DNA of 64,000 bases from a virus (IMGVR_UViG_3300020204_000007:32001-96000), one strand, 5' to 3'; counted from the first letter of the stretch, positions 45,283 through 49,403 are shown. Numbers and translations are program-made. The notes: generated from the letters alone by a model not told the origin.

Positions 45283-47202
45283 CTAAAATAAAATAGTCGC
45301 GCTACCCGATTTTAACATTTTTTCTGAGTCTTCTTCGTTCTTTTTCTTAATATCTAAGTTATATTCATTTGCATAATGAACCCGTAATGCTTCTTGCATC
45401 CCTTCTACTGTAGTAAAATTTAGCTTTTTTGTAAAATCAAAAGCATCATTTTGATTTGCTTGTATAACACTGGCGTTTGCAGTAATAAAGGGATCTATTG
45501 CGTATCTGAGCGCGTCTGGACCATGAGTAAAATCATCATCTGCAAATTTAGAATAATCATATCCCATCAATCCTCTTGCATATGTCCAATTTTCCATACA
45601 TTTTATTAAAAATGTATTTTTCATATCGTCTAAAATCATAAAATTAGCTTGTTGTCGCATAGCATTCCATAATTTTGAACGAATCCATGCAACACCAGTG
45701 TCAATTGTTAATGGTTTTTCGCCTCTGGCTGGCATATTCATGCTGCCAGCAACAGATGTTGATGATTTATCGGCAGTGTCTGGACATAATAAATCAAAAC
45801 CGTATTTTAAATATATGTTTTCTTTTATAAAGGAAAGCCAGTCTGGATTGGCATATCCTGTTGAATTTTCTGTGTGTAAAACTATTAATTTATCATCAGA
45901 TTTTTTATATGCGACTAAAACAGCAACTGCTGGATCAATGAATCCAAAATCTACTCCACAATGCAATCGCCATCCGTTTTGTCGTAATTCTTTAATCAAT
46001 AATTCTTTTGTTGGTTCAAATAAATTTCCGTATTTGTCTGTTGGAAATACATTAAATGCAAAATTCCATACGTCAGAAATAGGTTTTACATGAACGCTTC
46101 TATTAAATTTATTAAAAACAACACCAGATGACTCTGGCCTTAAGTTCAAGATCTGTGCATTTATTTTATCTGGGTCACTCGCATTTAATAAAGTGTTTTT
46201 AACAAACCCTATATCACGTAACATTTTTGATTTTGATTGTTGTTTAATTGATTTTGTGCGACAGATTGAAAAAACTGGACAAGTTTTGCAACCCTCATAC
46301 GCTAAAATGCCAGAATATGCCATTTTATATTCGGCATTCAATGCTTGATATGCCGGATTTCCAATAACGTCCAGATTTTCAGAATGAACAAATAACATAT
46401 CTCTAGGATGTTCTGGTTTATGTCTTTCTGGAGGACATGGTTGCATCCAATCAACAATTGACCATTTATGCAAACGAATGCCCGAGTTAGGTAAATCAGA
46501 TTCATCTATTTTTTGTTGAATTGGCCCAGATCCAGATTTTCTGGAAGATAAATAAATAAAAATTGGCGGTTTTCCTGATCTATCTGGGTCGGCAATAAAC
46601 GTTGCCTCAGATAAAATGTCTTTATCGATTAAGTCAAGCTCATCAAAAATCAAACAACTTGCGCGTTGGGCGTTTGCAGACTTTTTAGTAGAAACAACAA
46701 CTTGTAATTTACAATAGCCAACTGGTCGAGATGGCGCGGATGGCAACCTATTAAGTTCTTTTATTCGTTTACTGTCTGTTTTAGCAAATGAAGATATAAT
46801 TGGCAGAGCTAAGTATTTATCTAAATATCTAATCGCAGCTAACGATTGATCTAGAATAGCTGCCATATGTACAATATCGCGGGCAAAATGCACCATTAAC
46901 AAAAATTCAATAATAGATGCTGCTAATGTTTTTGCAGAGTTTCGGCTTGCTGCTACAACAAATGTAGTCCTGTTTGGATCGCCGTCTTTTGCTGCGGAAT
47001 AAACATCCCAAATAAAATCTATTGGATTGGAATTACTATTTTCATCTACCGTGCAATCCGGTAAATCAATATCTAGAAAAGTCTTAATCCATTGTTTAAG
47101 TTGTGGTTTTGTGTCACAAACTGCAAAAAATTGTTCTTCATACAGCTCATTAAGAGCTGCATTTAATTGATTTTGATTTGTTATCTCTGTTTTTTTAACC
47201 AT
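45283..47202 (-). CDS. terL: Terminase large subunit
   Basis: ASRNSAKT Walker A variant, LIFDELD Walker B, GVDFGFIDP and HGPDALRYA nuclease motifs. Confidence 0.92.
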   Translation of the reverse strand: MVKKTEITNQNQLNAALNELYEEQFFAVCDTKPQLKQWIKTFLDIDLPDCTVDENSNSNPIDFIWDVYSAAKDGDPNRTTFVVAASRNSAKTLAASIIEFLLMVHFARDIVHMAAILDQSLAAIRYLDKYLALPIISSFAKTDSKRIKELNRLPSAPSRPVGYCKLQVVVSTKKSANAQRASCLIFDELDLIDKDILSEATFIADPDRSGKPPIFIYLSSRKSGSGPIQQKIDESDLPNSGIRLHKWSIVDWMQPCPPERHKPEHPRDMLFVHSENLDVIGNPAYQALNAEYKMAYSGILAYEGCKTCPVFSICRTKSIKQQSKSKMLRDIGFVKNTLLNASDPDKINAQILNLRPESSGVVFNKFNRSVHVKPISDVWNFAFNVFPTDKYGNLFEPTKELLIKELRQNGWRLHCGVDFGFIDPAVAVLVAYKKSDDKLIVLHTENSTGYANPDWLSFIKENIYLKYGFDLLCPDTADKSSTSVAGSMNMPARGEKPLTIDTGVAWIRSKLWNAMRQQANFMILDDMKNTFLIKCMENWTYARGLMGYDYSKFADDDFTHGPDALRYAIDPFITANASVIQANQNDAFDFTKKLNFTTVEGMQEALRVHYANEYNLDIKKKNEEDSEKMLKSGSATILF

Positions 47203-47204
47203 AA

Positions 47205-47843
47205 TTAATCTTTAAATGGGTGAAACCATGTAACAATACAAAATTTATTACCATTAATAACTTTGTGTGCGATATGTTCATATGCATAGTTTGATGGAAA
47301 TAATAATATTGAATTTTTTTTTGGTTTAATTTTTAAATCAAACTTTGTGAATTCTAATTCACCGCCTTGGTAATCATCATTTAAATACATTATACAAGAA
47401 ACTTCTCTAGATTGTGTTAATCCACCGGCATCTGTATGCTTATGGTATACACCGTTCTCTTTATATCTCAAAACATGGTAGCCTTCATCATTTTTGATGA
47501 AAATATCGTGATCATTTGAATAATCTAAAATACTTTTTTTAAAAAATAAAAAGATTAATTTGTCAAATTCTGACATAAAATCATTATTTTTTAAATGACT
47601 AGAAACAAAAAAGGTATCACAAATTCTTAATCCGTTATTATACTGATTTTTTTGTATTGTAGCTGGCTGCCACATTTCTTCTGAAATTTTTGATATAAAA
47701 TCAAAAAAAATACAATTAAATTCATCTGGAAATATATATTGTGTGATGCATGGTCCAATAATATTTTTTTCAAATTCAAATTCCGTAATATTTTCTATTC
47801 CTGCCTTTTCCTTCAAGGAGGCTGCAGTATTTTCTAAATTCAC
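47205..47843 (-). CDS. 2OG-Fe(II) oxygenase (prolyl-4-hydroxylase-like)
   Basis: HTD, YLNDDYQGGELEF, FPSNYAYEH and K...TW motifs; probable GTG start at 47843 with AAGGA SD. Confidence 0.85.
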   Translation of the reverse strand: MNLENTAASLKEKAGIENITEFEFEKNIIGPCITQYIFPDEFNCIFFDFISKISEEMWQPATIQKNQYNNGLRICDTFFVSSHLKNNDFMSEFDKLIFLFFKKSILDYSNDHDIFIKNDEGYHVLRYKENGVYHKHTDAGGLTQSREVSCIMYLNDDYQGGELEFTKFDLKIKPKKNSILLFPSNYAYEHIAHKVINGNKFCIVTWFHPFKD

Positions 47844-48699
47844 AAGCAATTCCTTCAATATTACAGGTAGTTAATAAAATATTTTTACCGTTCATTTGTA
47901 AGTAAGGGAAAGATTCTGTTGGTTGGTGTTTCATCAAAGTATAGGCGACGTCTTCAGGCTTTGCTTTTTTGTTTAAAATTTTACAAGTTGGCGCTGCTCC
48001 TCGCCCCATTTCTAAATACTTGAATTCATCAATATATTCTGGAAATTGATATCCAAAATCCATCATAATCTCGGTCATATGGAATGGATTTTTAAATTTT
48101 AAAATTGGATGAATGCTATTAGTTAAGTATTGAATACTATGTTTTTTATCAGACATCAGCAATTGATAAATTGGTTCAACTAATTCTGGCAGTTTTTCAT
48201 ATAAAAATGCTTCTCGATTTTCTGCGCCAATAATAGAAAGACCTGCTTGCGGGAAAAGATATGCAGTATTGAATTTTGGCCCTTCTATTTTATTGAATTT
48301 TTCACGTGAAAGTTTGTTTTCTTCTTTATTTAAAGAAATATTACCGGTAATTTCAAGAGTTTTAGGTAAATTAATATACCTAGCAAACATAATATTTAAT
48401 AAAGTTAATTTTTTATCGTGAAGACACGATTGAAGCCAGTTGTGTATCCACAGTGTTGTTTTATCTAATTCTCTATAACAGTTTGTAAAATAATTTCTAT
48501 TCAAAATAGGATCTTCTGTCCACGGTCTTGGTTGCCCGTTATCTTTTAAATGAAAAATTTTCATTCGTTCAATTGCAAAATCCCAATATCTCTGTTCAAT
48601 AATAGAATCTATAGCAACTTCATTCCCCTGCATCCAACCAAAATTTTGGTATTCAGAAAAATGAATATAAGAATTTAATGCTTTGATAATAGAACTCAT
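47776..48699 (-). CDS. aGPT-Pplase1 / 5-hmdU DNA kinase helical-domain family protein
   Basis: FAIER, PWTEDPILNRNYFTNCYRELDKTTLW, F...EIMMD, GRGA and IEGIACEFRKY motifs. Confidence 0.82.
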   Translation of the reverse strand: MSSIIKALNSYIHFSEYQNFGWMQGNEVAIDSIIEQRYWDFAIERMKIFHLKDNGQPRPWTEDPILNRNYFTNCYRELDKTTLWIHNWLQSCLHDKKLTLLNIMFARYINLPKTLEITGNISLNKEENKLSREKFNKIEGPKFNTAYLFPQAGLSIIGAENREAFLYEKLPELVEPIYQLLMSDKKHSIQYLTNSIHPILKFKNPFHMTEIMMDFGYQFPEYIDEFKYLEMGRGAAPTCKILNKKAKPEDVAYTLMKHQPTESFPYLQMNGKNILLTTCNIEGIACEFRKYCSLLEGKGRNRKYYGI

Positions 48700-49403
48700 C
48701 TCGTTTTAACCTTTTCTAACAATTCTAAAAGTTCTAATCTGTCGTGTTCTGATTTTTCTTCAATTAACGTCGGCTCTATTACGCTGGATTCAATAGTTTC
48801 AACCCTATTTTTAGCCGCATTATTTAGGTTTGCAACGTTAACATTAACAACTGTACCACTTGCTGACTTGCCTTCGGCTTCTTTAGTTTGAAGAGATTGA
48901 AGCATATCTAATAAAGTCATAAAATCACGATAATTTTTCGGAATTAATGGACAATTTTTAGCTTGAGTTGGATCTTTTATAACTTCTGCTAATTGTTGTT
49001 TATATAAAGCGGCAGTTGCTACAATTGCGTCTGTAACTAAATCAATAGCGGCTGCATCTGCGCGAGTGACTTTTTCACCTGCACGAACAGAGGTAACAAG
49101 TTTTTTTCGTTCATGCCATTTATAATAAATGCCTGTGTATAACAAAATTCCCAATGGAATATTAAGTTTATTGGCAATTTCTTCCCAGCTAGCTCCCATG
49201 TAATAAAAATAAAACGCCGACTGCTCTACTTGTGACGGCAACCTGCTTCCAATTTTAACGGCCGTAGTTTTTGCTAGTTGAAATTCTTCCGCAGTCATAT
49301 CAATTGGCTGATCACCAAAACAATCTAAAGGCTCTTCACGTTTTATAAACGAAGATTCTGAATAATTTGGAGTAATATTGCTGTTTTTATTATTCTTTTT
49401 CAT
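48696..49403 (-). CDS. HTH protein, candidate terminase small subunit
   Basis: GASWEEIANKLNIP HTH, W..RK, VNVNV strand; upstream of terL. Confidence 0.5.
   Translation of the reverse strand: MKKNNKNSNITPNYSESSFIKREEPLDCFGDQPIDMTAEEFQLAKTTAVKIGSRLPSQVEQSAFYFYYMGASWEEIANKLNIPLGILLYTGIYYKWHERKKLVTSVRAGEKVTRADAAAIDLVTDAIVATAALYKQQLAEVIKDPTQAKNCPLIPKNYRDFMTLLDMLQSLQTKEAEGKSASGTVVNVNVANLNNAAKNRVETIESSVIEPTLIEEKSEHDRLELLELLEKVKTR

Follow-up and report, generated by a model that had tools for sequence, protein, structure and literature searches.

A PF18723 gene between the probable small and the large terminase genes in one sub-clade of Mx1-related phages

Gene order at the terminase locus

The 64,000-nt window analyzed here (IMGVR_UViG_3300020204_000007, positions 32001-96000), to which all coordinates refer unless another record is named, belongs to a 106,653-bp record, estimated to be 65% complete, of an uncultured large tailed phage. 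Between 45283 and 49403 it carries a gene of the PF18723 family (HMUDK_hel, aGPT-Pplase clade 1) and a gene for a 2-oxoglutarate (2OG)-Fe(II) oxygenase, both lying between the gene of a helix-turn-helix (HTH) protein, which is probably the small terminase TerS, and the gene of the large terminase TerL. On the minus strand the order is tail sheath, terminator-like hairpin, HTH gene, PF18723 gene, oxygenase, TerL, a gene for a 328-aa protein, and portal (Table 1). The four open reading frames (ORFs) at the center of this order had been proposed in a first-pass annotation made from the sequence alone, and all of them were found on that strand. Two junctions noted there can be read directly from the sequence; the stop codon of the HTH gene and the start codon of the PF18723 gene share the ATGA at 48696-48699, and the oxygenase gene ends with TAA at 47205-47207, which is followed by two nucleotides and then by the ATG of TerL at 47202.

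The hairpin is the best-scoring terminator-like site of the region. A hairpin is found at the equivalent position after the sheath gene in relatives, and the AT-rich box between the hairpin and the HTH start is conserved, with AAAAATAcTATATATtTAAA common to the window and the related loci L001 and L003. Since the genes share one orientation, leave little space between them and begin after a strong terminator that follows the sheath gene, co-expression with TerL is likely. Judged from this layout, a morphogenesis and packaging operon with all its genes on one strand would begin here, and the PF18723 gene is likely to be expressed together with TerL, presumably late. The earlier proposal that a modification gene is expressed late with the packaging motor is therefore retained as likely for its expression part, while its packaging-coupling part found no support, as discussed below.

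Table 1. Features of the terminase locus and of the distant candidate modification cluster (window coordinates)
Feature	Position	Strand	Basis or remark
Tail sheath, 948 aa	49504..52350	-	phrog_279 at 1.5e-29; gene upstream of operon
Intrinsic-terminator-like hairpin	49449..49476	-	11-bp stem and T run; between sheath stop and HTH gene
HTH protein, probable TerS, 235 aa	48696..49403	-	Position and architecture
PF18723 HMUDK_hel / aGPT-Pplase clade 1 protein, 307 aa	47776..48699	-	Pfam E-value 1.6e-24
P4H-type 2OG-Fe(II) oxygenase, at most 217 aa	47205..47858	-	PF13640, phrog_61; start uncertain
Large terminase TerL, 639 aa	45283..47202	-	Fold and family profile
Conserved 328-aa protein	44288..45274	-	Between TerL and portal
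Portal	42256..44277	-	PF04860 at 5.3e-15; phrog_12
P-loop kinase, candidate 5-hmdU DNA kinase	5252..5890	-	Walker A GAGATGKT
AADT-like gene	6595..7476	-	PF18724 18.3 bits, E-value 2e-3, below cut-off 26.2
FAD-oxidoreductase-like gene	7433..8341	-	N-terminal GxGxxG; overlaps AADT-like gene

The PF18723 protein

The first-pass assignment of the 307-aa ORF to the aGPT-Pplase1/HMUDK-helical family is borne out by the Pfam match, which scores 87.2 bits against a cut-off of 25 and covers positions 5-273 of the 281 in the profile. Alignment with the PaMx11-type protein encoded beside a kinase gave an hhalign probability of 99.9, and a search of the 106.6-kb record recognized this gene as the sole copy (87.1 bits). 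The usual context of the family, fused or adjacent to the 5-hydroxymethyl-2'-deoxyuridine (5-hmdU) DNA kinase and/or the dUMP hydroxymethylase, is not found at this locus; it is not required for membership, and the protein is a conserved member of the 5-hydroxymethyluracil (5-hmU)-based thymidine-hypermodification toolkit.

In an alignment of 45 PF18723 sequences, C286, E287, D63, R76, D79, R107 and D214 are invariant, and E282, N73, Y75 and E77 are nearly so. The protein has both the N-terminal YRE-DK motif and the C-terminal Cys-Glu motif of the family, the latter being present also in the PaMx11-type protein, and its E282-x3-C286 can be aligned to the E-T-x-x-C of the PaMx11-type AADT, although the profile probability is low. 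In the Pplase2 proteins this Cys is catalytic and the Glu binds metal (PMC13458397, PMC11472151). A search of PDB sequences with the PF18723 profile retrieved no AADT structure, and in the literature we found no activity assigned to a clade 1 aGPT-Pplase. Because the E-x3-C that supplies the metal ligand and the catalytic Cys in the AADT paralogs is kept, the PF18723 protein is likely to be a competent enzyme rather than an inert helical domain, and we favor its interpretation as an AADT-superfamily enzyme that would act on 5-hmU-type substrates.

The protein might instead be a detached subunit of the 5-hmdU DNA kinase, working in trans with the P-loop kinase at 5252-5890 in the manner of the helical domain of SP10 gp186. 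The Pfam family name itself refers to the kinase; the kinase and PF18723 genes are adjacent and overlapping in the PaMx11-like phage PAKlein3, a P-loop NTP-hydrolase gene overlaps PF18723 in Bordetella CN2, and SP10 gp186 is a fusion of kinase and PF18723 (PMC5889632, PMC8989533). However, the kinase domain of gp186 is active alone (PMC5889632, PMC8989533), and M6 gp54 and gp51 are enough in vitro without gp55, the clade 1 protein of that phage (PMC8989533). In Acinetobacter 15599 and Ralstonia RSL1 the partner of PF18723 is the dUMP hydroxymethylase, no kinase is detectable in the complete relative G003, which has PF18723 and a thymidylate synthase (TS)-like gene, and the invariant Cys-Glu would point to a catalytic role of the protein itself. 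A kinase subunit thus seems an unlikely role, and an enzyme in its own right remains the favored one.

The large terminase and the probable small terminase

Although the 639-aa protein has no match in Pfam, it is confirmed as TerL by fold and profile, in agreement with the first-pass annotation. Its AlphaFold2 (AF2) model (mean pLDDT 86.5) consists of an ATPase and an RNase-H-like nuclease domain, and the best Foldseek match was TerL of phage D6E (E-value = 3.7e-15), followed by those of HK97, T4 (gp17) and Sf6; the family profile matches the nuclease domain of SPP1 G2P at 4.5e-9. The Walker A residues R87/K91, the Walker B residues D187-E188 and the nuclease residues D418/D475 are invariant, and D563 is invariant or nearly so. 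Four further invariant residues, C256, C305, C308 and C314, suggest a possible zinc-binding insertion in the ATPase domain. The TerL of the window has no intein, whereas its homologs often bear one; of the 56 homologs listed, about 20 have a length of 0.8-1.1 kb, and Hint/intein and LAGLIDADG or HNH domains occur in most of these.

The HTH protein at 48696-49403 was modeled at a mean pLDDT of 77.7, with an N-terminal HTH domain of the sigma-r4/LuxR-like type (residues 38-106, pLDDT >90), helices at 111-143, 158-173 and 219-234, and a disordered segment at 180-218. This predicted architecture would fit TerS, with its HTH, oligomerization helices and C-terminal segment, but is not specific to TerS. 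The protein has 82 homologs. Among the about 65 related loci that have enough upstream sequence, which are those counted throughout, 21 have the gene of this family abutting or overlapping TerL, and in three more it lies at most 160 nt away; in Myxococcus phage Mx1, the gene next upstream of TerL encodes a homolog (hhalign probability 98.8). In the window, only the two inserted genes separate the HTH gene from TerL.

Searches of PDB, Pfam and PHROGs by sequence and by profile found no significant match for this protein, and no characterized TerS family; the matches to the model from Foldseek (PDB and BFVD), VIA-align wide and the Atlas were all to generic HTH or uncharacterized viral proteins. 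TerS of G20C was found at Z = 4.4, rank 31 among generic HTH matches, which is non-discriminating. Matches to Terminase_5 were obtained for three of 70 homologs, and are weak (best E-value = 6.6e-4), and the T5-TerS and Terminase_5 clusters are among the nearest named clusters of the Atlas.

These results bear on a second interpretation, in which the HTH protein would be a late transcription factor resembling sigma region 4, and the two inserted genes would not lie between terminase subunits at all. The best structural matches are indeed to LuxR/GerE and sigma-70 region 4 HTH domains, no characterized TerS family is significantly matched, and in nine distant relatives the family is encoded 6-9 kb away on the opposite strand. 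Against this stand the abutment or overlap with TerL in 21 divergent loci and in Mx1, the size of the protein and its succession of HTH, long helices, flexible linker and C-terminal helix, which suit TerS, and the Terminase_5 and T5-TerS relationships just described; moreover, Mx1 carries a separate annotated sigma factor, and no alternative TerS candidate lies beside TerL. We regard the sigma-like regulator as improbable, and by position and architecture the HTH protein is likely to be TerS. The first-pass proposal to that effect is accordingly made plausible by the gene neighborhood in the relatives and in Mx1, and not by any match to a characterized TerS.

Conservation of the insertion and other cargo at the junction

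The PF18723 gene is found between the HTH gene and TerL in nine of the about 65 related loci, all of one sub-clade with a TerL at least 48% identical to that of the window. All nine retain the 4-nt overlap with the TerS gene, and within this sub-clade the gene order is real and conserved. PF18723, TerS and TerL of the window are 85%, 89% and 86% identical to those of G001, 43%, 50% and 55% identical to those of L008, and 38%, 50% and 48% identical to those of G003. Because the identity of PF18723 falls in step with that of its neighbors, one old insertion followed by vertical descent would account for the nine loci, and suggests that the gene arrived in the ancestor of the sub-clade. In the sister lineages L009 and L031 (TerL 45-48% identical), the HTH gene is joined directly to TerL, and no PF18723 gene occurs anywhere in the records of 28 further relatives, of which seven have a completeness of at least 90%. 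The synteny check proposed with the first-pass annotation thus comes out differently for the two genes; the PF18723 insertion is conserved in the nine-locus sub-clade, and the oxygenase is not.

Other inserts occupy the same junction elsewhere, the gap between the HTH gene and TerL being 0.3-2 kb in 13 loci and 4.4-6.4 kb in four. Pfam matches show this cargo to include the fructose-1,6-bisphosphatase (FBPase) glpX (E-value = 1.6e-111), a class II aldolase, a Zn-ribbon/DUF2726 protein and a protein of the endonuclease VII type, and several of the inserted genes match no family. The TerS-TerL junction therefore appears, from these sequences, to take up accessory genes in general within this phage group, and because it holds unrelated cargo in other lineages, adjacency to the terminase genes is not specific to DNA-modification genes. 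The ORFs of about 300 aa that precede TerL in other lineages were considered as cryptic relatives of PF18723 and were ruled out, being FBPase, endonuclease VII-type and other proteins.

Three of the cargo genes, encoding a glpX-type fructose-1,6-bisphosphatase, a class II aldolase or an endonuclease VII-type protein, are located at 9094-9996 of L028, 8286-8972 of L063 and 9044-9949 of L069. Carbon-metabolism auxiliary genes are thus present inside the packaging operon of related phages.

The oxygenase

The protein encoded before TerL had been annotated as a 2OG-Fe(II) oxygenase, and both PF13640 (2OG-FeII_Oxy_3; E-value = 1.8e-17, 64.5 bits against a cut-off of 27) and phrog_61 (3.7e-30) agree with this. 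H141-x-D143, H195 and H198 are invariant among three orthologs, and the Fe(II) triad is intact. The match to PF12851 (Tet_JBP), 19.7 bits against a cut-off of 34.9, is below that cut-off and involves the shared C-terminal core only. The caution that oxygenases resembling prolyl 4-hydroxylase (P4H) are common accessory genes in phages was well placed, phrog_61 being a common auxiliary gene.

The oxygenase gene adjoins the PF18723 gene, as first annotated, but the overlap of 83 nt is not established, since it depends on a TTG start; the upstream frame into PF18723 is likewise open in G001, which is without the oxygenase, and both the true start and the length of the overlap are uncertain for that reason. 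The possibility that a programmed frameshift or a fusion joins PF18723 to the oxygenase was also considered, and was ruled out because the open upstream frame persists where the oxygenase is absent.

Among relatives whose flanking genes are about 85% identical to those of the window, the oxygenase is cleanly absent in G001/L001, is a remnant with stop codons in L002, and in L003/L004 is only 49-53% identical to that of the window, in a mosaic pattern in which the C-terminal core is nearly identical. L008, L018 and G003, more distant lineages that carry PF18723, have none. A blastn search of the region against cultured phages gave a single match, 88 nt within the oxygenase.

It had been suggested that this enzyme might tailor the modified base; it could also make 5-hmU from T in DNA, and either activity would make it a member of the pathway. 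Its place beside PF18723, with a possible overlap, and its intact Fe(II) triad are compatible with such a role, and phage T-dioxygenases do exist (PMC13229309). However, the best families are PF13640 and the common auxiliary phrog_61, with Tet_JBP at the sub-threshold score given above, and the gene is absent or decayed where its flanks are about 85% identical and absent from L008, L018 and G003, which keep PF18723. A part in the pathway is therefore very unlikely, and the oxygenase is instead a dispensable, variable accessory cassette of the P4H type, not TET/JBP-like, and an ordinary mobile auxiliary gene.

Modification genes and other genes of the window and its relatives

Candidate genes of the modification pathway lie in a cluster that is collinear in G001. 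The kinase and AADT-like genes are about 42 kb from the PF18723 gene, a distance that had been given correctly in the first pass. The kinase matches the PaMx11-type kinase only weakly in pairwise comparison (E-value = 0.009), has no Pfam family and shows a weak match to phrog_800. The AADT-like protein matches phrog_6364 at 2.7e-9, and its E-S-C-L-C motif aligns to the catalytic region; with its PF18724 score below the cut-off, it is AADT-like rather than an established member of that family, and a search against PDB gave no match. The window also holds a dCMP-deaminase-like gene and a facing pair of amidoligase-like and low-molecular-weight (LMW)-phosphatase genes. In the stretch 3175-8341, a PaMx11-like core (AADT-like, flavin adenine dinucleotide (FAD)-oxidoreductase-like, P-loop kinase and dCMP-deaminase-like) faces this pair, and because no acetyltransferase was seen in that cluster, the final base may differ from 5-acetylaminomethyl-2'-deoxyuridine (5-AcNmdU).

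We could not find a TS-family gene in the 106.6-kb record, which is 65% complete. G035, a contig of the lineage of the window (kinase 89% identical), carries one; its TS-family match (G035:C1:5341-5889; L120 1291-2025) contains one in-frame TAA, and a 244-aa ORF covers most of the match. In G003, a complete relative of 187 kb bounded by direct terminal repeats (DTR), PF18723 at the junction is accompanied in the genome by a TS-like gene and a deaminase-like gene, and searches by tblastn, phmmer, a kinase profile, PF18724 and a Walker-A scan followed by Pfam revealed no kinase, AADT, FAD enzyme or amidoligase. None of the seven PF18723-negative relatives with a completeness of at least 90% has a TS-family gene. 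Because G003 has both genes without a kinase, and the PF18723-negative relatives are without TS, PF18723 seems to follow the TS-like gene rather than the kinase.

The TS-like gene of G003 has as its neighbors genes for a GIY-YIG/NUMOD homing-type endonuclease and for a Ro60/TROVE and vWA protein, at 3426-5921 and 8563-10242 of L099 (G003 120001-140000). In the window, a gene at 713-3088 (minus strand) encodes a 791-aa protein that contains tandem KPTAAPVEAKKES-type repeats and matches Lysostaphin_N weakly, and has no counterpart in the otherwise collinear G001. The 328-aa protein encoded at 44288-45274 belongs to no Pfam or PHROG family. Its homolog is present between TerL and portal in most of the related loci that extend that far, including Mx1, and the gene would appear to be a conserved, unannotated packaging or head gene.

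Origin and meaning of the gene order

Taken as a whole, the locus is probably best read, with somewhat better than even confidence, as an old insertion of PF18723 at a permissive TerS-TerL site of the packaging operon, joined by a younger oxygenase cassette. The PF18723 gene would have entered the junction once, in the ancestor of the sub-clade, and would then have been inherited in place, translationally coupled to TerS; the oxygenase would be a second, much younger and dispensable P4H-type cassette at the same site, and the PF18723 protein would probably be made together with the packaging proteins. Some points weigh against this account. The motif alignment between PF18723 and AADT has a low hhalign probability (0.3-11%), the words late and co-transcribed are read from the gene layout, and the stable retention of PF18723 at exactly this site in phages whose TerL identity is as low as 48% could be due to selection for late expression and not to neutral inheritance.

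A more specific proposal is that concatemeric DNA is modified by the PF18723 enzyme, and perhaps also by the oxygenase, during packaging or shortly before it, in an action timed with or physically linked to TerS/TerL. The translational coupling to TerS in nine of nine loci, the tight embedding of the gene before TerL and its stable retention here, away from the usual kinase/dUMP hydroxymethylase site, speak for it, and thymidine hypermodification is post-replicative in characterized phages (PMC8989533). Yet in other lineages the genes at this junction are those of sugar metabolism and of a homing-type endonuclease, so that adjacency is non-specific; the oxygenase is dispensable, and the kinase, the AADT-like protein and the FAD enzyme are encoded 40 kb away, beside a RecA-like gene. 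We consider such an action at packaging rather improbable, and packaging-coupled modification, as first inferred from the gene order, is not supported when the same junction carries the FBPase glpX, class II aldolase and endonuclease VII elsewhere. The comparative data, as far as sequences can tell, favor cargo in a permissive site. The recurrence of cargo at the TerS-TerL junction in Mx1-related large myophages calls for caution in reading function from terminase adjacency.

The locus is a natural experiment for the family. The gene stands apart from the kinase and within the packaging operon, G003 has the TS-like gene and no detectable kinase or transferase, and non-modifying sister phages are without both genes; because of this separation, this gene content and this absence, the PF18723 family would not be merely an accessory domain of the kinase. 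A bolder scenario, to which we give little credence, is that the clade 1 aGPT-Pplase is an autonomous cysteine enzyme tied to a TS-like hydroxymethylase and not to the DNA kinase, and that in this phage clade it has come to be made with the packaging machinery and acts on 5-hmU DNA as a final step before or during encapsidation. If so, it could finish or proof-read the modification of DNA entering the head. The clade 1 family is widespread in phages, and yet it is dispensable in the in vitro reconstitutions of thymidine hypermodification; a useful outcome of the present comparison is a lead on the function of the clade 1 Pplases.

Comparison with known systems

The nearest cultured relative is Mx1 (TerL 32% identical), in which the HTH-family gene, TerL, a gene for a protein of about 330 aa and portal follow in the same order as in the window. 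This situation differs from that of the window in that nothing lies between the HTH gene and TerL of Mx1, and PF18723 is not annotated in that region.

The clade 1 proteins of thymidine-hypermodifying phages (the PaMx11/M6 type, with M6 gp55, as well as ViI gp160, PhiW-14 gp72 and the C-terminal half of SP10 gp186) are of the same family and share the Cys-Glu motif, in the form LCEF(R/D)KY; the lineage of the window also resembles these phages in having a TS-like gene, a P-loop kinase and an AADT-like gene. In the cultured phages, however, the PF18723 gene belongs to the nucleotide-metabolism module, by the kinase or the dUMP hydroxymethylase, whereas here it is 42 kb away from the kinase and between the probable TerS and TerL. 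The order in PAKlein3 and Bordetella CN2 is kinase, PF18723 (overlapping) and TS/dUMP hydroxymethylase; in Bacillus YungSlug, the TS gene follows about 1 kb after PF18723, which overlaps a 176-aa ORF that bears no annotation, and in Acinetobacter 15599 and Ralstonia RSL1 it directly precedes the dUMP hydroxymethylase. In the record of PAKlein3 (L016, 5414-6870), the 5-hmdU DNA kinase and the PF18723 protein are both annotated as terminase small subunit; phrog_800, which the kinase of the window matches weakly, bears the same label, and this looks like a propagated misannotation.

The AADT or Pplase2 proteins (PaMx11 gp46, M6 gp51 and those of YuA and Acinetobacter 15599) are paralogous, all-helical, and similar to the PF18723 protein in having E-x3-C near the C-terminus (PMC13458397), but no significant sequence or profile match was obtained between them and the donor-pocket residues cannot be placed. 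The PaMx11 pathway to 5-aminomethyl-2'-deoxyuridine (5-NmdU) and 5-AcNmdU consists of gp46 (AADT), gp47 (FAD lyase), gp48 (acetyltransferase) and gp49 (kinase), and has its likeness in the overlapping AADT-like and FAD-oxidoreductase-like genes and the P-loop kinase at 5252-8341. The cluster of the window differs in that no acetyltransferase was seen, amidoligase-like and LMW-phosphatase genes face it, PF18723 is detached, and the AADT and kinase matches are below curated cut-offs.

In the HTVC023P-type pelagiphages, TS is paired with aG/PT-PPlase1 genes (PMC9599517), and the annotated domains of a validated E. coli defense system include thymidylate synthase and 5-hmdU DNA kinase (PMC13092281). 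In those systems the two genes are near each other, whereas they are about 110 kb apart in G003, and the record of the window, being 65% complete, is without a TS gene; G003 is nevertheless like them in combining PF18723 with a TS-like gene without an obligatory DNA kinase.

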